This document shows positions 6,141-47,326 of a DNA stretch of 64,000 nt, piece after piece (position 1 is the first letter of the stretch; every line of letters begins with the position of its first letter). A model generated the notes under the pieces. It was not told the DNA's origin and made no database searches. It worked only from the letters and a program-made list of their open reading frames with translations. The DNA comes from Escherichia phage AV110, in the sequence record OR352940.1; one strand, written 5' to 3'. A program made the position numbers and the translations under genes.

Positions 6141-8852
6141 TCAAAAATCAAACATATCGAACAGAGATGCTTTCTTCTCGTAATCGAGTTTAGCTGCTGA
6201 TGTGAATCCTTCAAGTGGTTTAATAAATGTCTTCTCAAGGAGAACAGTGTAGTCCATCCAATGAAGTACGTCGTCTTTAATTAAATCTGTGATTTCAGTA
6301 CCAGAAGGCCATGCGATACATTTATCACCGAATGGGTTTCCTTCACGTAAAGGCAGAACATATACTTTTTCACCTTCTACAACTTGTGGTGCATCAATAT
6401 TACCTTTGATAGCTCGGTTATATGTCAGAATTCCACGAATATGGAACGGGCATTTAGGACCCGGGAATCCACCTACGTCATATTTAGCAATGTTATTCGC
6501 AGAAGATACCGACGCGATGCTAATATAATTCAATTGACGGAATTCTTTTTCAAACTCTTTAAAATATTCTTGTAATGATTCTTCACCTTCTTGAAGCATA
6601 CGACGAATACATTCTTTAAGAGCTTTCTGTACTGCTTTAGGAGTCGAAGATTTCTGAGTCTCTAGACCCATGATTTTGAGTTTAGGCTCAGCGTAACGAG
6701 TGCCTTCCATATCCCACACGTTTAATGCATAACGTTTCTTACCAGTCCAGAATCCACCAATACCTTTAGAACCGAGCGGAGGGCCAGCAATAGCTTCTCG
6801 GTCCATGAACATTAAGTGTTGTTTATTGTTCATGTATTCACACATTTCACGGAAACCTCTATCAATAGCAGGTTCCATACGTTCACGAGCGAACTTATCT
6901 AAGAAGTCTACCCAATGGTTGGTATCACGGAATTTAGATTCACCAACCTTATCGATAATTTTATCGGCAGATACGTAAATAGAGTCTGTATCACCATATA
7001 GAACGAAAGCTTCACCTTCTGTACCACAAACTTCATTCAGATATTCATTAACTTTACGTTCAATCCACTGTAAAGCCATTTGTCCGAATGTTGTGATTGC
7101 AGTAGCATTACGCAAATCATAATAACGGAACCAAACGTTGCCAAGTGCACCATAAAGTGAGTTGATAAGCAATTTACGGTTAATTTGTGCGGTCATACCT
7201 GCAACTTCAGTACGTTGAGCTCTAAACAACATTTCATTAAGAGATTTAGCAGACAACTTTTTAATCTTTTCTTTAATCTCATCACTGAAGTCGAAACGAT
7301 AATCAACATCTAATGGTTCGTCAACAGAAAGATTAGGATTATGCAATGCCTCTTTAATTATTTCACCATTACGTTGAGCTGCAAGCATATAACCTTTATG
7401 TTCTTTACGTTGATTAAAGACCTTAGTGATTTCAGTTGGAACTACACCATCACGGTCTTTATAATACATCATGCCGTTAGGAGAGCAACTGTACACATCT
7501 GAAGGACGTTCAGCGATTGCGTTAATATAATCATGCAATGGAGCTACTTTAAACGTTCCTGCTATTGTTTCCGGGCTAATATTCACTTGGCGAATAATAC
7601 TTGGATACAGAGATGTAAGGTCGAAACTCATTACATATTTGTATCGATTTGGAATAGGTTCCTTAACAAAAGCGCCAGGATAAGGTTGAACCGGGTGAGA
7701 ACGACCTTGTGGAATCACCTTGTTTTGTTCTTTAAGGCTATTAAAAATAATAGCATCCCAAGTTTTAATTGGACTGAACACAGATTGAATCTGAATTTTA
7801 GCATAATAACCCATGTCCAAGCTCAAGTTGATGAACTGACGCTTAGAATCAATTTGCAATACACGATACACGTCGATAATGTTATAAGAAATATATCGTT
7901 GGTGATTGCTTTCACGAAGCTTAGAAATAGGGCCGTCATATTTCAGTTTACCAACGTTCAATTCAAATTCTGAAATGTAATCCAGAGAATACGACGGTTG
8001 ATTGGTAAAAGAGAATTTTTTGTAAAGGTCAATGTAATCAAGAACAGAGATACCGAACAATGTAATGATTTCACGAGAACCATACATGTTTTCGATAACT
8101 TTAACACGAGTTTTACGATGCGGCGATAAACGTTTCGCAGTAGATTCGCCAAAAATATTCTTGATTCGGTTATACACATATGGAATATCAAATGACTCAA
8201 CGTTCCATCCAGTCAAAATGACAGGAGTTTTCTGTTGCCAGAAGTTGAGATATTCCATCAACAATTCTTTTTCGTTATCGAACGGCATATAAATGATTTT
8301 ATCGATAATTTCAGATGGAACTTCATCACCGCCTTGTTCTTGAAGCTTAGCAGCGATTTCAATAGACCATTCTTCTACATTACCATATGGAGAATTCAAT
8401 AGATCAAATACGTAGAACCTGTCGTCAATTGAGTCATAATGGGTGATAGCATCAATCGGATGTTTTGCTTGTGACGGCTCAGGGAACCCGTCCGGAGATG
8501 TTACTTCGATGTCGAAGTTAGCCACACGAATTTTTGTATGGTCGTATTTGATTTCATAGTTATAAGTGTCAGACAAATACGCCAATTTGAAATCGTCCAT
8601 GCCAAGTGCTTCAAGTCCGATATCTTCCATGCGTTTAATCCATTGGGAGGCATCACGCATATTAGCGAACAACTTACGAGTACACGGCTTACCGTAGATA
8701 TCGAAATATTTCGTAGCCTGACTTTCCGGACAATGAGCAAACAGTGATGGTTTATATTCTACTTCACGAGTACGTTCACGGCCATTAGAATCGATGTAAC
8801 GTTCAAAAATTGAATCACCAATCTGTTCAACCGTTAAGTAAAATTCTTTCAT
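6141..8852 (-). CDS. 43: DNA polymerase (family B), gp43
   Basis: 903 aa; exonuclease motifs (FDIEV, ..FDIPYVY), polymerase motifs (DxxSLYPS, YGDTDS); N-terminus MKEFYLTVEQIGDSIFERY matches RB69 gp43 as recalled. Confidence 0.97.
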   Translation of the reverse strand: MKEFYLTVEQIGDSIFERYIDSNGRERTREVEYKPSLFAHCPESQATKYFDIYGKPCTRKLFANMRDASQWIKRMEDIGLEALGMDDFKLAYLSDTYNYEIKYDHTKIRVANFDIEVTSPDGFPEPSQAKHPIDAITHYDSIDDRFYVFDLLNSPYGNVEEWSIEIAAKLQEQGGDEVPSEIIDKIIYMPFDNEKELLMEYLNFWQQKTPVILTGWNVESFDIPYVYNRIKNIFGESTAKRLSPHRKTRVKVIENMYGSREIITLFGISVLDYIDLYKKFSFTNQPSYSLDYISEFELNVGKLKYDGPISKLRESNHQRYISYNIIDVYRVLQIDSKRQFINLSLDMGYYAKIQIQSVFSPIKTWDAIIFNSLKEQNKVIPQGRSHPVQPYPGAFVKEPIPNRYKYVMSFDLTSLYPSIIRQVNISPETIAGTFKVAPLHDYINAIAERPSDVYSCSPNGMMYYKDRDGVVPTEITKVFNQRKEHKGYMLAAQRNGEIIKEALHNPNLSVDEPLDVDYRFDFSDEIKEKIKKLSAKSLNEMLFRAQRTEVAGMTAQINRKLLINSLYGALGNVWFRYYDLRNATAITTFGQMALQWIERKVNEYLNEVCGTEGEAFVLYGDTDSIYVSADKIIDKVGESKFRDTNHWVDFLDKFARERMEPAIDRGFREMCEYMNNKQHLMFMDREAIAGPPLGSKGIGGFWTGKKRYALNVWDMEGTRYAEPKLKIMGLETQKSSTPKAVQKALKECIRRMLQEGEESLQEYFKEFEKEFRQLNYISIASVSSANNIAKYDVGGFPGPKCPFHIRGILTYNRAIKGNIDAPQVVEGEKVYVLPLREGNPFGDKCIAWPSGTEITDLIKDDVLHWMDYTVLLEKTFIKPLEGFTSAAKLDYEKKASLFDMFDF

Positions 8853-38747: not shown

Positions 38748-39050
38748 TTATTTACCTTTAATTACTTTAGCTGCTTCGATAGCCGCTTGCTGAAGGTCAT
38801 CCATAGACATACCGAATTTAGAAGCAAAGTTATCAATTTTCTTTTCGACAGCATTCAAAGGCTTGGCCTGTTTACCTTCATTAGCGCCAGGAAGAGCGAG
38901 AATACGCTCTTTGTCAATATAAAGGCTTACAAGTTTCTTACGGTCTTTATCGGACAAATCATGAAATGAATGGGCCTTTTTATTTATAGCGGCTTCTAAT
39001 TTACCTGCACTCACTCGAGCTTCAGTAATAAATTCTTGATATGTTTTCAT
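38748..39050 (-). CDS. capsid-targeted internal protein (IPII/IPIII-like)
   Basis: N-terminal capsid-targeting sequence MKTYQEFITE (T4 IP consensus MKTYQEFIAE, cleaved by prohead protease after Glu). Confidence 0.65.
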   Translation of the reverse strand: MKTYQEFITEARVSAGKLEAAINKKAHSFHDLSDKDRKKLVSLYIDKERILALPGANEGKQAKPLNAVEKKIDNFASKFGMSMDDLQQAAIEAAKVIKGK

Positions 39051-39076: not shown

Positions 39077-39391
39077 TTATTCTTTAGGGAAGTTTTTAGA
39101 GTATGCGTCATAAAGTTTATTACCGATGCGACGGAAAACTTTAGCTGCAAAACGGTTTTCAGGGTTTTTAATCATGATTTGCATCATGTAAGTTCCTGCA
39201 TCCGAAAGAGCTTCTTCATAGTACCCATTAATTTCTTTAAGAGTCCTACGTTTACCACCAGGACCATCGACAGTAATTTTCCATTTACCTGTAGAAGTGC
39301 GGCTCGGTGGCTCAACTTGTTCAATCCAAATATAACCACCTTCAACGCGTTGGTTGGCGGATTCTGCAATAAATTCTTTATACGTTTTCAT
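39077..39391 (-). CDS. capsid-targeted internal protein
   Basis: N-terminal MKTYKEFIAE CTS. Confidence 0.65.
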   Translation of the reverse strand: MKTYKEFIAESANQRVEGGYIWIEQVEPPSRTSTGKWKITVDGPGGKRRTLKEINGYYEEALSDAGTYMMQIMIKNPENRFAAKVFRRIGNKLYDAYSKNFPKE

Positions 39392-40193: not shown

Positions 40194-40475
40194 CTATTTT
40201 TCTGAAGCGCCTGAAATATATTTTTCAAGACGTTGTTTCATTAGCGAGCCGTTCTTAGCGATTTCTTCCGGTTTATCGCACATACGCAACAAGGCTTCAA
40301 GCTTAGCGATATCGCTGGTACGTTCAAATTTGCGAGTATCTATCTTACTAGCAAGTTCAGAAATACGTGCTAATAGACTTTCGGCTTCAACCAAAGCTGC
40401 ACCTAGCTTAGTTGCAAATGTGTCAGTAGCTTCGTTAAGAATAGATTCTGATAAAAATTCACTATATGTTTTCAT
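40194..40475 (-). CDS. capsid-targeted internal protein
   Basis: Start trimmed to [13 protein letters not shown]; ATG overlaps lysozyme stop. Confidence 0.6.
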
Positions 40476-40960
40476 ATATACGCTTTCCAAGTTCCTGTTT
40501 TAAATGTTGAGATTACTCGTTTCGCGCGATTAGGTGTCTGACGATACCATTTAGATTGGGCTAGATTTACTGCCGCTTCATCCCAACGTTTCTGTTGAAG
40601 CATACGAAGAGAATTAGTAAAACCGGCGACGCCTGCTACACCCATTTGGAAGACCATATTGACCAATGCACAACGACGAACTGCATCTAAAGAATCATAC
40701 ACCGGTTTAAGTTTAGCATTACCCAAGATTCCGCGAACGGCTTTATCAACGTCTTCATTAAATAGCTTTTCAGCCTCATCAAGGGTAATTGTACCGTTGC
40801 ATTTACGGCCGATCATTCTGTCAAGTTCAGCTTTAGCTACGGCTAAAGACGGGTTCTTTGTTACTAAATGGCCAATGCCAATCGTCCAAAAGCCTTCAGT
40901 GTCTTTGTATAAAGTCAGTCTAAGACCTTCGTCATTACGAAGCATTTCAAATATATTCAT
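40472..40960 (-). CDS. e: endolysin (T4 lysozyme e homologue)
   Basis: Start at [32 protein letters not shown]; catalytic Glu/Asp context; close to T4 lysozyme. Confidence 0.93.
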
Positions 40961-41453: not shown

Positions 41454-41694
41454 CTCGGTCCCATGATTTGGCCATTAATTCGGACATAAATTCTTCAATG
41501 CGCGTTTCTTTAGATGGACTTTCACTATTAGAGACCGCAAGTTTGTAATCTGCAATAGGACAGAACATATCAAGGTCCATATTAAGGACGTCTTTGATTT
41601 TTTCTTCTGACACATCTTTATCGTATGTGTACAGATAACTATCACATGATTCTGATTTAATGTAAATTGCTATACTCATCTCAAATTCCTGCAT
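41443..41694 (-). CDS. hypothetical acidic protein (83 aa)
   Basis: ORF. Confidence 0.45.
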   Translation of the reverse strand: MQEFEMSIAIYIKSESCDSYLYTYDKDVSEEKIKDVLNMDLDMFCPIADYKLAVSNSESPSKETRIEEFMSELMAKSWDRDDE

Positions 41695-42167
41695 TCGGTA
41701 ATAAAACGTTCAACTTCATTATTCTTGGCTTTTATCTTGTCTTTATGTTCTTGTAAACTACTTTTAATAAGATTAATAATGATGGCGGCGGTACCGCCGC
41801 CAATGATGCCACCAACAACACTTATTATACTAGATGCTAATAAGATAGCAATAATATCAACAAAACCGAAAGAACTCACCTTAGTACTAAAAAACCATAC
41901 CGACGGTACAAATATAATCCATCCTGTTATCCATTGGCACTTATTGAAAAACTTTTCAAGCTCAGCTTGAGTTGTTCGTATTACTTCATCGATAGGTTGA
42001 TATCCATTAATGTATCTGTTCACAATAATACCTGCTGGCTGGTCGATTTTAAATTCTTGGCAAATATGTTTCACTAAGTAGAATGGACAGGATGTCCATT
42101 CTACTGAATAGTATGAAATACCTTCGTTGCCATCGTCTATATTAGACCAATATGTTTTGTTAATCAT
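41676..42167 (-). CDS. membrane protein, FIKECR-tail family member
   Basis: TM and glycine-zipper segment; C-terminus ...ERFITECRNLR. Confidence 0.5.
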   Translation of the reverse strand: MINKTYWSNIDDGNEGISYYSVEWTSCPFYLVKHICQEFKIDQPAGIIVNRYINGYQPIDEVIRTTQAELEKFFNKCQWITGWIIFVPSVWFFSTKVSSFGFVDIIAILLASSIISVVGGIIGGGTAAIIINLIKSSLQEHKDKIKAKNNEVERFITECRNLR

Positions 42168-42853
42168 TACCAGCCTTCCATAGGGAATTCCAGATAAACT
42201 TGGGCATTGACACGAATTTCATTGGTAATCTTTTTAACTCGGTCTGTATTACGAGATACACGTCCGAACCAACGCCATCCATTACTAATTGCACGAGAAC
42301 CAGTGTGCCATGTTTGCCAATCAAACTGAAGAAGAGTACGATCTGGAGCTTCCCATTTCTCTAGTTCACCTTTTTCGATTTTTTCGAGGACTTCTTTGTG
42401 CCACTGGCGATAGATAAGTTCGCCATCAGGAATCTGACTGAACTCTGCAGTTCCTGTTGCAAAATGAGTAGGACACACATCAGCGTTAACAAGACCAAGA
42501 ATGTGTTCAGACAAATAGCGAGGATTGTCATAGTCAGGTTGTCCTGCAGTAATAAAGTGTTGACCAACTGGAATATCCGGGCGTGGTACATCGTCATGGT
42601 GATAACCTGGGATAGCAGGGTACCAACCAGGCATCAGCATGTGGACTCGTGAATCAAATACAACCTGGTCGGTGTTCCAATCATCTGGCAAGTTCATGAT
42701 GAAGCTGCGAGTAATAGGACCGCCGTTATTATAAGCAAATTCTAAACTACAGTTGAAGAACATAGGTTCGTTTTTAATCTGGTCGTTTTTAATCGCATGA
42801 GCAAAACCACCTACTGCACGAGCTTGACTATTAAACACTTTAGAACTATTCAT
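42167..42853 (-). CDS. hypothetical protein (228 aa)
   Basis: Long ORF; His/Asp-rich stretch GYHHDDVPRP; no family assigned. Confidence 0.55.
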   Translation of the reverse strand: MNSSKVFNSQARAVGGFAHAIKNDQIKNEPMFFNCSLEFAYNNGGPITRSFIMNLPDDWNTDQVVFDSRVHMLMPGWYPAIPGYHHDDVPRPDIPVGQHFITAGQPDYDNPRYLSEHILGLVNADVCPTHFATGTAEFSQIPDGELIYRQWHKEVLEKIEKGELEKWEAPDRTLLQFDWQTWHTGSRAISNGWRWFGRVSRNTDRVKKITNEIRVNAQVYLEFPMEGW

Positions 42854-42854
42854 A

Positions 42855-43160
42855 TTATTTTCCTCGACATTCTTTAATGAAATTTTCTAGATTGGTAGAT
42901 TCAATAGCTTTTTTACGAGCTTCTGCGTGTTCTTCTTCGGACAATTTACGTTTATAATTGACCCAGACATTATTGTCGAAACCAGACGTGGCATATAATA
43001 ACAAAGCTCCAACGAATAGCAAAAATGGTGATAAAAATATACAACCAGGAACACCATCCATACTGTAAGCCTTTTGTAATACTGCAACAGAAAGAGTTGC
43101 GTAAAAAGGTGATGCAAGTATTGTTAAAAGACCAATTCGATTGGTTTCTGTTAATTTCAT
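42855..43160 (-). CDS. membrane protein, FIKECR-tail family member
   Basis: Two TM segments; C-terminus ...ENFIKECRGK. Confidence 0.5.
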   Translation of the reverse strand: MKLTETNRIGLLTILASPFYATLSVAVLQKAYSMDGVPGCIFLSPFLLFVGALLLYATSGFDNNVWVNYKRKLSEEEHAEARKKAIESTNLENFIKECRGK

Positions 43161-43188
43161 AATATTCTCCTCATGTTTTAATAGGACT

Positions 43189-43218
43189 ACTATAACATAG
43201 TCCTATAATTGTGTAAAC
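43189..43218 (-). promoter_or_regulatory. sigma70-type early promoter (GTTTAC-N18-TATAGT) in conserved palindrome cassette
   Basis: ATAGGACTACTATAACATAGTCCTAT cassette; rc gtaaac at 43213-43218. Confidence 0.5.
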
Positions 43219-43230
43219 AGTTTTGTGAAG

Positions 43231-44187
43231 TTATTTGAAAGGTTTTACCATATGGAAATTTTGTTTGAAACGTTTTACGTAATCGTCATGTCCTAAGCTT
43301 TGGTACATACTTACAACTTTGCTGTAGTTTTCCCAGGCGTATTCACGGAACCAACCGGAGGTGATGCTTGTGCAGACTTTTTCTAATGCCATCATGAAAC
43401 TGGCTTCAGGGTTAATTTTAAAGTCATTAGGAATCTGAGAACGTTCTAATGCTAGTACACATGATTCTTCATATACACCGGCCAATTTGACCATTTCTGG
43501 TAACGATTCGAACTTCTCGCGTGAGGTCATGACTTCAGAACCGTCTTTCATATAAAATGTATACGCTGGGCGGTCTGTTAGCGCAATGGCTTCGTGAATA
43601 GTATCATGGTCATATGTATAGATGTCATCTTTAAAGAACGCACTTTTAGAAGTGTCAAGAACTGGGTGAGCATAGTTCAAGGTTTCTTTCTGGCGTTTCA
43701 GCATAATTTCAGTAAGTTCATCGTTCAGTGTAACACCTTTACCACGAAGATACTGAATATGGTTCATAGTCTTTAAAAAGAATGGATTATTTTTCTTGAA
43801 ACGATGAGACATCTTAATTGCAAGACATATCTCAGGAGTTGCCCAGTAAAACCCGTTCAAACGGTCTTTAGACAAATTTTTCTCGGCGTATTTTAAAAGG
43901 TCATAAGAAGACGTGAAATCTTCAGGAGTGAGTTCACCGACTAATTCACGGACATTAGTGATTGCCGGAACAATATATGCTTCAAAATGAGTTTCGCGTC
44001 CATTATGGAAGCATTTGAAAACTTGGACATCAGGGTTATCTTGGTGAACATATACACCCATCATTTGATTTTTGAATGCATTCCAAGAACATTGGTCCGC
44101 AATAAAGTCCCAATCACTATTTTTGATAGCGCTAGAATCAATAAGACCGTGATAGTGAAGCGCACGAGAACCAATAACTAACATCAT
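43231..44187 (-). CDS. hypothetical protein (318 aa)
   Basis: Long ORF; no motif recognised. Confidence 0.55.
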   Translation of the reverse strand: MMLVIGSRALHYHGLIDSSAIKNSDWDFIADQCSWNAFKNQMMGVYVHQDNPDVQVFKCFHNGRETHFEAYIVPAITNVRELVGELTPEDFTSSYDLLKYAEKNLSKDRLNGFYWATPEICLAIKMSHRFKKNNPFFLKTMNHIQYLRGKGVTLNDELTEIMLKRQKETLNYAHPVLDTSKSAFFKDDIYTYDHDTIHEAIALTDRPAYTFYMKDGSEVMTSREKFESLPEMVKLAGVYEESCVLALERSQIPNDFKINPEASFMMALEKVCTSITSGWFREYAWENYSKVVSMYQSLGHDDYVKRFKQNFHMVKPFK

Positions 44188-44215
44188 AATATTTTCCTCG
44201 GATTAATTCATTAAC

Positions 44216-44467
44216 TTAAATTTCACGACATGCGATATCATATTCATCCCAGAGGTCGTCATGTGAAGCCTCTACCAATGGAACGATTGTACCGTTTATG
44301 TCTTCATTATAAGGACAAATTGTACAGTGCGCATCTTCGAATCGGATGCCTTTGTGTTCAGATTTTTTATAACGCATATCGAATATCTTTGCAAACTTTT
44401 CACGAGTAATAGTTTTAGCAACTACTTCGGTTCCGATACTTTCGTAATAAATCATTGTGGACTCCAT
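44216..44467 (-). CDS. hypothetical protein (83 aa)
   Basis: ORF downstream of early promoter. Confidence 0.45.
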   Translation of the reverse strand: MESTMIYYESIGTEVVAKTITREKFAKIFDMRYKKSEHKGIRFEDAHCTICPYNEDINGTIVPLVEASHDDLWDEYDIACREI

Positions 44468-44483
44468 TTGTTTTGATAGGACT

Positions 44484-44513
44484 ACTATAACATAGCCCTA
44501 TCTTGTTGTAAAC
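44484..44513 (-). promoter_or_regulatory. sigma70-type early promoter in conserved palindrome cassette
   Basis: ATAGGACTACTATAACATAGCCCTAT; rc gtaaac 44508-44513, actata 44484-44489. Confidence 0.5.
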
Positions 44514-44517
44514 TGTT

Positions 44518-44715
44518 TTAGCAAGAATAACTAGATGATACCCAGCCTTGAACAGTGATACTATTGTGGGATAATGAGATCGCGTCCTGGATATTCAGAC
44601 CTGCGTTATCTTCAATCCATAATGTAACTTCTTCGCGTTCTTCTGTTGCAATTTGGAACAGGTTTTCCAGGGCAGCTACTGCCGTACGTACAGCACAATC
44701 TAATTCACGAGACAT
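44518..44715 (-). CDS. small protein, GWVSSSxxC-tail family member A
   Basis: C-terminus ...VQGWVSSSYSC. Confidence 0.45.
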   Translation of the reverse strand: MSRELDCAVRTAVAALENLFQIATEEREEVTLWIEDNAGLNIQDAISLSHNSITVQGWVSSSYSC

Positions 44716-44724
44716 ATTGTTTCC

Positions 44725-44997
44725 TTAGCAAGTGTGAGAAGATGCAACCCAACCACCAGTTTCGAGGCTCAGGTTGTAGTCGTATTGGTAAACGTCAGCC
44801 CATTCAGCATAGCCATTTTTTGTACAACGTTCAAGATCGGCTTTAAGATGTCCGGGTGAATGATAGGTTCCACCCATACCATAAGCTGGGTACAAGTTGA
44901 ATGTTGTGTTTTGTTTATCAGCAATTTCTTTGGCAGCCTCAATAGCTGCATAGATTTTTGCTACAGCTTCAGCCAGTTCGGTTTGTTCTTTAGACAT
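44725..44997 (-). CDS. small protein, GWVSSSxxC-tail family member B
   Basis: C-terminus ...GGWVASSHTC; shares YG.G.TY.(S/P)(P/K)G with member C. Confidence 0.5.
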   Translation of the reverse strand: MSKEQTELAEAVAKIYAAIEAAKEIADKQNTTFNLYPAYGMGGTYHSPGHLKADLERCTKNGYAEWADVYQYDYNLSLETGGWVASSHTC

Positions 44998-45006
44998 AAT
45001 GATTCC

Positions 45007-45312
45007 TTAGCACAACGCAGAAGACGAAACCCAAGCACCTTCAGTAATAACGTATCCATTACCTTCACGCTTAACATCGCCGCCATTATTTTCAATTTCA
45101 TCTTTCATCCACTGGGATACGATTTCACCCTTAGGATAATAAGTACGACCGCTACCATAATCACCTACAGAAAATGATACGGCATATTGGTCTGCGATCT
45201 TTGTTGCTTCTTCTTCGATACGTTCAGCTTGATTCAGAAGTTTATAAATTGCATCTGAAGCGGATTTGGCATCATTAAACTCTGGTACTTTAATTTCAAT
45301 AATCTTACTCAT
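45007..45312 (-). CDS. small protein, GWVSSSxxC-tail family member C
   Basis: C-terminus ...EGAWVSSSALC. Confidence 0.5.
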   Translation of the reverse strand: MSKIIEIKVPEFNDAKSASDAIYKLLNQAERIEEEATKIADQYAVSFSVGDYGSGRTYYPKGEIVSQWMKDEIENNGGDVKREGNGYVITEGAWVSSSALC

Positions 45313-45668
45313 TTTCTACATTCCTTAATAAAGTTTTCGATTGTTTCATTTTCACGTCTAGCTAGGAGTTCATTATAACTAATCATTTGAGAAGCGTAAA
45401 CCTTTTTATTTTTCTTGTTGTGGTTTATAAAACCGTAGTAAAAATAGACTACAGTACAAAATGATGCGATGGATGCAAAGGCTTGGGTATACCGTAAGTC
45501 CTGCCATTGGTCTGTGAATCCACCAGTGTTCCCTATAAATCCTAACACAACGCCGTCAATAAGAAATCCAACTAATCCAAAGGCAAATCCCATGCCAATA
45601 CTCATAATAAAAATTAGAATGTTCTCACCAAGAGAAGGCCATACGGTTAAGAGTTGTGGCTTTTGCAT
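45309..45668 (-). CDS. membrane protein, FIKECR-tail family member
   Basis: TM segments; C-terminus ...ENFIKECRK. Confidence 0.5.
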   Translation of the reverse strand: MQKPQLLTVWPSLGENILIFIMSIGMGFAFGLVGFLIDGVVLGFIGNTGGFTDQWQDLRYTQAFASIASFCTVVYFYYGFINHNKKNKKVYASQMISYNELLARRENETIENFIKECRK

Positions 45669-46072
45669 CTTATCTCCTTAACGAATTCCATAGCTTCTTC
45701 ATATTCATACTTTTTAACAGCTTCATCATACTGAGCTTGGGCTTTTGCGCACTGAACTTTCCACTCACGAACTCGAGCTCTGTGATGACGGCCTTGGTGC
45801 CAATATCCTACCCAATTAATAGGCATTAATAAAAACGGTACAATAAGTGGTGCGACGAACATTAATGAAAACGCTGCATCGGACGATATAACTTTATTGG
45901 AATCTAAAACAGCTCCTATAATCATAAAGATTAAAAATGCTAAAGCTAAAATAGGGCCAAATAGTACTTCGTTTGGGATTAATTTACGTTTGTATTCGTA
46001 TGCCCAGGGCTTACTTGGCATGTATAGGGTTGGCTTTGACATATTCTCTACATTCCATAATAAATTGCTCAA
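45647..46072 (-). CDS. membrane protein, FIKECR-like tail
   Basis: TM segments; C-terminus ...MEFVKEIRCKSHNS. Confidence 0.45.
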   Translation of the reverse strand: MSNLLWNVENMSKPTLYMPSKPWAYEYKRKLIPNEVLFGPILALAFLIFMIIGAVLDSNKVISSDAAFSLMFVAPLIVPFLLMPINWVGYWHQGRHHRARVREWKVQCAKAQAQYDEAVKKYEYEEAMEFVKEIRCKSHNS

Positions 46073-46634
46073 GGATTAAATTGTTAGTGAAATTAGGACT
46101 AACAACCATAGTTTCATAAAGCGCATCAATAGCACTTAAAGCATCAACTCTTTTAAGCAAAGGCTTGCCTTCATACATAGTTTCAGAATCGACGATTAAA
46201 GTGAAGTAGTATTTTTTATTATTGACCAGAACTTCTGTATCAATATAAAACATGTTAGACCTTAAAAGCTTATCTCTAAAACCATAATAATCTTTAGAGC
46301 GTTCGCTGATATATTCCCATTCGGTGTTTAAACAACAAACAGACCATGTAGGAGCAACGAAATCGGTGAATCTAATATCATGGTCTGCAACTAGTTTAGC
46401 AATAGCTCCGATATCATGAATCATAATACCTGGGGCTAATAAAGATTTTCTGCTATGGCTAGCTGTTTTCTCAGTAGTCTCATAAGAAGACGACCAGTAC
46501 CATTTACGCCCAGTTGCAACATATCGTAATGAATCAACTAAAGACGTAGGTGGATTTACCTTATCTCGGAACTCTTCGAACATTGAGTCAATATCATTAT
46601 TTTGGTTTCGCATGTTAACTCCTTTATTATCCAA
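46011..46634 (-). CDS. hypothetical protein (207 aa) with FIMECR motif near C-terminus
   Basis: ...LILEQFIMECREYVKANPIHAK. Confidence 0.5.
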   Translation of the reverse strand: MDNKGVNMRNQNNDIDSMFEEFRDKVNPPTSLVDSLRYVATGRKWYWSSSYETTEKTASHSRKSLLAPGIMIHDIGAIAKLVADHDIRFTDFVAPTWSVCCLNTEWEYISERSKDYYGFRDKLLRSNMFYIDTEVLVNNKKYYFTLIVDSETMYEGKPLLKRVDALSAIDALYETMVVSPNFTNNLILEQFIMECREYVKANPIHAK

Positions 46635-46662
46635 AAGGAGGACCGGAGTCCTCCGTATTATT

Positions 46663-47271: not shown

Positions 47272-47326
47272 TTGGTGGTTTATTATCCAACGAGAGCATT
47301 ATACTCTGCTCTCAAGAGTTTGTAAA

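Follow-up and report, generated by a model that had tools for sequence, protein, structure and literature searches.

A short C-terminal motif shared by diverse proteins encoded downstream of e.6, a likely PspA/IM30-type protein of T4-type phages

Why do proteins that have little else in common end in the same few residues? This question is raised by a gene cluster of Escherichia phage AV110 (sequence record OR352940.1), of which a stretch of 64,000 nucleotides (nt), called the window below, was analysed. A preliminary description of the window had pointed out five open reading frames (ORFs) with a common C-terminal motif, here termed the tag, and had suggested that it reflects a common partner, processing or targeting of small membrane proteins. 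All five are indeed found on the minus strand where they had been placed, with the C-termini as quoted (Table 1). The window is Mosigvirus (RB69-like) DNA, and the region of ca. 5.1 kb around the tags shows 96-98% identity to Mosigvirus phages, which are of the T4 type. In the annotated relative vB_EcoM_SA79RD, the same five ORFs are named e.2, a homologue of RB69ORF133c (ORF133c in the following), e.3, e.4 and e.5, with nudE on one side and e.6 on the other. Although T4 has been studied more closely than any other virulent phage, no function has been assigned to e.2 to e.6.

Using the strict pattern E.F[IV].ECR, four matches were obtained in the six-frame translation of the window, all at the reported sites and 1-11 residues from the stop codon, and none in 100 block shuffles. 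A hidden Markov model (HMM) trained on 33 tags, taken from the same and other phages, assigned 19.6, 18.1, 14.9, 13.4 and 10.9 bits to the five ORFs, the next best of 259 ORFs reaching 3.6 bits. The lowest score is that of e.4, previously set apart as the weaker case; at 10.9 bits compared with at most 3.6 bits elsewhere, e.4 therefore belongs to the tag set. The similarity resides in the protein and not in a DNA repeat, as first proposed, with ENFIKECR of ORF133c and e.3 differing by four synonymous changes in 24 nt. The further statement that the N-terminal parts are mostly hydrophobic and unrelated holds only in part: e.5 has no hydrophobic segment, e.2 starts with a soluble domain of ca. 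80 amino acids (aa), and a weak similarity between ORF133c and e.3 extends beyond the tag (46 aa, 35% identity, pairwise E-value 5e-5). When the 40-aa tag-bearing tails were searched against a collection of 5.8 billion proteins, only 16 fragments were returned, all of the same genes.

Conservation in orthologues of related phages had been named beforehand as the point on which the idea of a tag would stand or fall. The motif is retained in T4, Gaprivervirus DK-13, Dhakavirus JS98 and QL01, Kanagawavirus Entb_45, Marfavirus Marfa, Jiaodavirus Mineola, Tegunavirus fHe-Yen9-01, Tulanevirus AS-gz (Aeromonas) and Pseudotevenvirus GAP161 (Cronobacter), and is thus conserved across at least ten phage genera. 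In T4 (KJ477684, locus L002), e.5 contains …EKFVKECREYV…, e.4 ends in …MKFVKESRCKSQS and e.3 in …KEFVIDCRKIK. The annotated e.2 of T4 (6360-6847 region) is truncated to 102 aa, and an unannotated 63-aa ORF (6656-6847) just upstream of nudE, overlapping the annotated nudE start, encodes a transmembrane (TM) segment followed by …NNFITECRKLK. Other Tequatroviruses (L017-L019) have a single 162-aa e.2 with the same tail, and the T4 record is therefore frameshifted in e.2. From 37 distinct tags of 11 phages we obtained the consensus Φ-x-x-[F33/W4]-[I25/V9/L3]-x-x-[C30]-[R34/K3], followed in its generalised form by K, G or E. Counting from the aromatic residue as position 0, Glu at +3, directly before Cys, is typical only of Mosigvirus, Tequatrovirus and Dhakavirus, with G, Q, H, Y, N or S elsewhere. 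Conservation of the tag is far stronger than that of its carrier proteins, and between e.5-type proteins of different genera the tag is often the sole detectable similarity.

Two unusual arrangements of tagged genes were encountered. Phage LF82-2 (L003, 6016-6093) has e.3 reduced to a 25-aa remnant, MISYNELLAKRENETIENFIKECRK, in which only the tail, the tag and the ribosome-binding region of the next gene are left. An annotated 60-aa protein of Escherichia phage OLB35 (P0014) joins segments of e.3 (…ENETIE) to the tail of e.4 (AVKKYEYEEAMEFVKEIRCKSLN), which could be a rearrangement of two tagged genes or an artefact of assembly or annotation.

Tags occur only on genes downstream of e.6. Inspection by hand showed the gene directly downstream of e.6 to be tagged in 10 of 10 genera. 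Where e.6 has been relocated beside nrdD/nrdG, in AS-gz and GAP161, the next gene still carries a tag and encodes a different, larger protein. With an e.6 profile, 39 loci were recovered from IMG/VR, 38 of which could be scored for a strict tag among the final 40 residues of the following ORF; 34 were positive, and the four misses comprise two FINYCI/FVNYCI variants, one frameshifted e.5 and one miscalled ORF. Tag-bearing tails made up 126 of 642 ORFs downstream of e.6 compared with 0 of 538 upstream in these loci, counting plus-strand ORFs of at least 60 aa and thus including spurious ORFs equally on both sides. The 72-kb early region of RB49 (Krischvirus), as a single e.6-negative region, contains neither an e.6 homologue nor a tag, the best tag HMM score being 5.0 bits.

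In principle, a motif at this position could be a by-product of the translation-initiation region of the next gene, i.e. of its Shine-Dalgarno sequence (SD) and A/U-rich leader. The next gene usually starts 1-17 nt after the Cys codon, and each of the five tags of the window either includes the next start codon or stops 2-13 nt short of it; the K-E codons AAGGAG/AAGGAA probably serve as SD of the genes that follow e.4 and e.3, and the R-C codons of e.4 (AGA TGC) supply the ATG of e.3. Nevertheless, the tag lies at no fixed distance from the following start, with spacings from -4 to 74 nt in varying frame, and the SD falls on different motif residues from gene to gene. For Arg, five codons drawn from both codon families are used (AGA 15, CGT 9, CGA 4, AGG 3, CGC 3), synonymous variation is also seen for Cys, Phe, Ile and Val, and F (TTY) alternates with W (TGG). 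Further, some tags are not followed by a nearby start (gaps of ca. 80 nt in AS-gz, 74 nt in GAP161 and 27-64 nt from the Cys codon for QL01/JS98 orf124), while hundreds of other overlapping gene junctions lack the motif, as seen in the 538 upstream ORFs above. We therefore rejected an origin in translation initiation or any other nucleotide-level feature, which we consider extremely unlikely. The codon variety, the variable spacing, the tags without a downstream start and the tag as sole similarity between genera instead indicate selection at the amino-acid level.

As a separate observation on coding, the E-C codons GAA-TGY always create an out-of-frame ATG (window 45647-45691 and 41688-41696; L002 6829). 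The E-C-R codons of the e.2 tail in T4 enclose the start annotated for nudE (MQEIKM…). For e.3 and e.5, the sequence is ATG-TAG, a start with a stop directly behind it.

The e.6 protein, next to which the tags are found, is highly conserved and as a single sequence yields no match in Pfam, NCBIfam or PDB sequences; for the e.6 of the window, none to PF04012 was seen at an E-value of up to 1. An AF2 model (predicted local distance difference test score, pLDDT, 76) consists of helices 3-22, 25-80, 86-145, 166-175 and 186-196, and this predicted arrangement corresponds to α0, the α1/α2-3 hairpin, α4 and α5 of the PspA/IM30 fold. In a Foldseek search of the PDB with this model, the top eight hits were all Vipp1/PspA structures matched over the full length (7o3w_A, E-value 2.4e-4, probability 1.0), followed by CdvB2 and PspA itself. 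A search of the viral structure library BFVD returned phage proteins named 'PspA/IM30 family' and 'Snf7 family', and the e.6 profile gave weak (E-value about 1) but colinear Vipp1 matches among PDB sequences.

Profile searches of 1.84 billion representatives identified only 45 relatives of e.6, all of ca. 200 aa. One of them, P0082, matches the e.6 profile with an E-value of 7.7e-17 and at the same time PF04012 (PspA_IM30) with an E-value of 8.9e-10 and 39 bits (gathering score 33.9), colinearly over residues 6-146 vs 2-143. PF04012 was matched by 4 of 31 family members and no other Pfam family by more than one. P0082-type proteins belong to Ackermannviridae-like phages and connect by tblastn to annotated T4-like e.6 genes at 2e-7 to 6e-20. 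In hhalign, the extended e.6 family and E. coli PspA matched weakly but colinearly over residues 1-60 of each (E-value 2e-4, probability 47%), while the close e.6 alignment against the single E. coli PspA sequence gave nothing. Based on its fold and the transitive Pfam matches, we consider it likely that e.6 is a diverged PspA/IM30 (Vipp1) protein of the ESCRT-III superfamily, whose members bind membranes and repair them. A PspA/IM30 annotation already exists for at least one other phage protein, and no description of the tag or of a link between e.6 and PspA was found in the searchable literature. GenBank names in use at this locus, 'sulfurtransferase' for e.4 or e.3, 'putative phosphoserine phosphatase' for e.5 and 'host specificity protein' for e.6, received no support from Pfam, PHROG, NCBIfam or fold and were not adopted. 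Downstream of distant, Pfam-positive PspA-like relatives of e.6 on Ackermannviridae-like contigs, small single-TM proteins (L053 7201-7383, L058 1520-1926) end in …DSIIKHARSRTRQ, …DEIVTKARGRVRRK and …DKIVLGAIDRQRSKS; judged by these endings, they may represent a Cys-less sister or diverged form of the tag.

The tag-bearing proteins encoded at e.6 loci form ca. 30 clusters at BLAST level, roughly half with two to three TM segments and half soluble. The original view of a tag on membrane proteins is thus too narrow, as it is also found on soluble families such as the e.5-like proteins, Entb_45 7072-7371 (…DKFIKQCRRNQNVS) and JS98 orf124 (…KLFLEYCRSDVQL). The five carriers of the window fall into five different PHROGs of unknown function, and searches with single carriers against Pfam, NCBIfam and PDB sequences gave no match. 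For e.5, a homologue search retrieved only three near-identical proteins, and the structure predicted from the single sequence was unusable (pLDDT 37.6). In the membrane carriers of the window, the tail follows a K/R-rich stretch behind the last TM segment, and by the positive-inside rule their tails are therefore predicted to be cytoplasmic, in agreement with the existence of soluble carriers. These proteins accordingly have the form of small inner-membrane proteins with a cytoplasmic tail encoded beside a pspA-like gene, the topology being read from the positive-inside rule.

Clustering of these genes could also mean that the tag is a functionless relic of the tandem duplication of one small membrane-protein gene. 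The similarity of ORF133c and e.3 beyond the tag would fit such a history, as would the order of TM hairpin, basic stretch, helix and tag common to e.2, ORF133c, e.3 and e.4. A relic should however decay along with the rest of the protein, yet the tag is the best or sole conserved segment between genera and is also present on soluble proteins of unrelated length and predicted secondary structure, making this origin highly improbable.

When the consensus is placed on a helix, positions -3, 0, +1 and +4 (Φ, F/W, I/V and C) fall inside a 100° arc with the Arg at +5 at its edge. This geometry suggests a short amphipathic docking helix, with Φ, F/W, I/V and C on one hydrophobic face flanked by the near-invariant Arg. 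Because the e.4 lineage has I, V or S in place of Cys, the Cys probably acts as a small hydrophobic residue and not through its thiol. That the tag works in general through a metal site or disulfide was considered and judged unlikely, given these substitutions and the presumably cytoplasmic tails.

A signal for processing or degradation would be a different use of such a short peptide, either as an I-x-E site, akin to the capsid-targeting sequence (CTS, MKTYQEFIAE), at which the T4 prohead protease would cut, or as a C-terminal degron recognised by a host protease. In T4 head maturation, gp21 cleaves at the consensus I-x-E, the FIxE of the tag resembles EFIAE of the CTS, and ORFs with a CTS (MKTYQEFITEAR) lie nearby in the window. 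With the tag HMM, the CTS peptides of the window reach no more than 2.1 and 0.9 bits, i.e. background, compared with at least 10.9 bits for tags, and outside Tequatrovirus, Mosigvirus and Dhakavirus the Glu at +3 varies, so that I-x-E is no constant of the motif. The CTS is moreover N-terminal, while the tags are C-terminal and also on membrane proteins. Known C-terminal degrons are non-polar, unlike the charged residues in which the tags end. A signal of this kind is very unlikely, and the CTS link (FIxExR vs MKTYQEFIAEAR) was dropped; the tag sequences do not have the N-terminal MKTY(Q/S)EF(I/L)xE with gp21 site that defines CTS proteins. CTS-type starts, including MKTYQEFITEAR…, …TYKEFIAES… and MKSYAEFLTE…, were seen on the minus-strand ORFs 38748-39050, 39077-39391, 40194-40490 and 48452-48916, which probably encode internal head proteins; their HMM scores indicate no relation to the tag.

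Of the roles suggested at the outset, a common partner thus emerges as the best reading, while processing and targeting found no support and the likeness to T4 capsid targeting is at noise level. As a tentative model, the tag may be the docking peptide of a phage membrane-maintenance module, in which e.2, ORF133c, e.3 and e.4 at the inner membrane, together with a soluble e.5-type protein, would bind one partner through their tags. Judging from synteny, this partner is most likely e.6. The proposal is based on the exclusive linkage to e.6 and on the analogy with PspA-type proteins, which small partners in the inner membrane recruit to the membrane: LiaI is the membrane anchor of the PspA homologue LiaH (PMC9239133), and the cytoplasmic C-terminal domain of PspC is its PspA-binding part (PMC5596341). 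By analogy, the membrane carriers might anchor or recruit e.6 as PspB/PspC do for PspA or LiaI for LiaH, and carriers and e.6 would together make up a Psp-like module that the phage encodes and that acts on the inner membrane of the infected host.

Several findings count against docking on e.6. Synteny and co-transcription could equally mean a shared function without contact to e.6, and a terminator-like hairpin lies between e.6 and e.5 (Table 1). A Pfam scan of the carriers at an E-value of up to 0.1 detected no PspC (PF04024), PspB or LiaI domain, so that the carriers are not classed as members of these families but as possible functional analogues. At more distant e.6-like loci, the tag is degenerate in L053 and L058 (I-[IV]-x-x-A-R) and absent in L055.

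The tagged proteins could instead bind each other, their tag helices bundling e.2, ORF133c, e.3, e.4 and e.5 into a membrane complex. Such a complex would be in line with the Φ/F/I/C stripe, which is typical of helix-helix packing, with the constant co-occurrence of 3-7 tagged proteins in one gene cluster per genome and with the tendency of the +3 residue to match within a genome (E in Mosigvirus, Tequatrovirus and Dhakavirus; mixed Q/G/H/Y elsewhere). AS-gz and GAP161 however have a single tagged protein beside e.6 within the 7 kb examined, a helix of 8-10 residues is short for a stable bundle, and the strict linkage to e.6 would be left unexplained. Overall, we regard tag-tag binding as rather unlikely.

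Docking on a host protein, for instance host PspA/PspF, FtsH or another cytoplasmic factor, with e.6 linked only functionally, is likewise unlikely. Many small T4 early proteins act on host factors, the host has its own Psp system (pspFABCDE), and the many unrelated N-terminal domains are what one would expect for effectors sent to one hub. With tags in phages of Aeromonas, Klebsiella, Yersinia, Cronobacter and E. coli, the target would have to be highly conserved, and RB49 infects E. coli without any tag. Further, the linkage to e.6 outlasts genome rearrangement, which a purely host-directed tag does not predict.

A more speculative version of docking on e.6 involves the C-terminus of e.6 itself. 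Polymerisation of Vipp1 and ESCRT-III requires a short C-terminal helix, α5, which docks on the hairpin of the neighbouring subunit (PMC8281802). The tags might mimic helix α5 of e.6 and plug into the hairpin α5 site of e.6 subunits, so that an ESCRT-III-like phage polymer would have its assembly, capping or membrane attachment programmed by interchangeable plug-in adaptors. The e.6 C-terminus, …V-Q-E-Y-I-N-S-L-K, has the spacing of the tag (Φ-x-x-aromatic-aliphatic-x-x-small hydrophobic-basic). It ranks however only 11th of 259 ORFs for tag likeness, and we consider α5 mimicry quite unlikely.

Coordinates of the tagged genes, their tags and the adjoining elements are collected in Table 1. The true starts of e.4 and e.5 are probably the ATG codons given there rather than TTG codons upstream. 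Two well-conserved untagged proteins are encoded on the minus strand among the tagged genes, one of 228 aa (42167-42853) and one of 318 aa (43231-44187), and neither has a counterpart in the T4 region examined (L002). The 228-aa protein shows 75-95% identity across genera, has homologues in Aeromonas, Mycobacterium, Gordonia and Bacillus phages and is labelled 2OG-Fe(II) oxygenase in one record; the 318-aa protein consists of DUF7277 and DUF7275. A second paralogue family with a C-terminal Cys motif is present in the same cluster. Homologues of RB69ORF136c, 137c and 139c, three small tandem ORFs on the minus strand (44518-44715, 44725-44997 and 45007-45312), end in G-W-V-(S/A)-S-S-x-x-C (…QGWVSSSYSC, …GGWVASSHTC, …GAWVSSSALC), and two of the three match phrog_899. 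In other genera, 3-5 copies occupy the same position, with endings such as …WVSSSAMC, …WVSSSMEC, …IWYPSSC and …FWYSSSMSRC in L004, L006, L008 and L011. The RB69ORF135c homologue (44216-44467, minus strand) ends in …LWDEYDIACREI, which is weakly tag-like (aromatic, I, x, C-R) and was missed by the tag HMM.

Table 1. Tagged genes, tags and adjoining elements in the window of phage AV110 (quoted C-termini run to the stop codon).
Feature	Position	Strand	Remarks
e.2, 163 aa	41676..42167	-	soluble domain at the N-terminus, then a hydrophobic region (about two TM segments) and a basic tail; tag ...VERFITECRNLR; phrog_2203
Tag ERFITECR of e.2	41688..41711	-	
RB69ORF133c homologue, 101 aa	42855..43160	-	2 TM segments and tail, tag ...LENFIKECRGK; phrog_9798
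Tag ENFIKECR of ORF133c	42864..42887	-	
Early-promoter-like site upstream of ORF133c	43189..43217	-	consensus match only
e.3, 119 aa	45309..45668	-	membrane protein, tag ...IENFIKECRK; phrog_2330
Tag ENFIKECR of e.3	45315..45338	-	
e.4, 131 aa from ATG 46042	45647..46042	-	2 TM segments and tail, variant tag ...AMEFVKEIRCKSHNS
Variant tag MEFVKEIR of e.4	45668..45691	-	Ile replacing Cys
e.5, 200 aa from ATG 46613	46011..46613	-	soluble; tag ...LEQFIMECREYVKANPIHAK; first gene after e.6; homologue P0056 has 200 aa
Tag EQFIMECR of e.5	46047..46070	-	11 aa before the stop codon
G+C-rich hairpin followed by T-run, between e.6 and e.5	46637..46654	-	terminator-like, possibly leaky; annotated terminator in SA79RD
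e.6, 197 aa	46663..47256	-	untagged conserved upstream neighbour; likely diverged PspA/IM30 (ESCRT-III superfamily); proposed tag partner
Early-promoter-like site TTTACA-17-TATAAT upstream of e.6	47298..47326	-	consensus match only

Taken together, a sequence rule groups ca. 30 orphan protein families of T4-like phages, e.6 is placed as a likely member of the PspA/Vipp1/ESCRT-III superfamily of membrane-remodelling proteins, and docking of the tagged proteins on e.6 is put forward as a cheaply testable model. Should it be true, T4-type phages bring a Psp-like system of their own with which they manage the inner membrane of the infected host, with a possible bearing on the maintenance of proton-motive force, the timing of lysis and the tolerance of many small membrane proteins. 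Should α5 mimicry apply, ca. 30 T4-type protein families of unknown function would be explained together. As a portable handle, the tag could also be used to bring proteins to a bacterial ESCRT-III-like polymer.

Four known systems invite comparison. Similar to the tag, the T4 CTS is a short peptide common to otherwise unrelated T4-type proteins, with a superficially similar E-F-I-x-E, but it is N-terminal, cleaved by gp21, directed to the prohead and without C-R, and its tag HMM score is at background. The ESCRT-III helix α5 and the MIT-interacting motif (MIM) are likewise short C-terminal helices, and the tag shares its spacing with the e.6 C-terminus. The MIM1 consensus (D/E)xxLxxRLxxL(K/R) has the same 0/3/4/7/8 spacing. 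In contrast to these systems, the tags are located on other proteins and not on the ESCRT-III-like protein, the likeness of the e.6 C-terminus is weak and no MIT-domain protein was identified. In LiaI-LiaH of Bacillus subtilis, there is one anchor, no short tag is common to unrelated proteins and the carriers were negative for LiaI in the Pfam scan, but LiaI matches the role proposed for the membrane carriers, being a small membrane protein that anchors a PspA homologue encoded in its own operon. Compared with the Psp systems of E. coli and Yersinia, the proposed phage module is viral, lacks a PspF-like regulator and comprises, per genome, 3-7 carriers of which some are soluble; e.6 has diverged far from PspA, no PspB/PspC domain is present in the tagged proteins and the C-terminus of PspC has no tag-like sequence. 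Nevertheless, in both cases a PspA-family gene stands beside genes of small inner-membrane proteins, and the gene order agrees as well, the pspA-like gene preceding those of the small membrane proteins.

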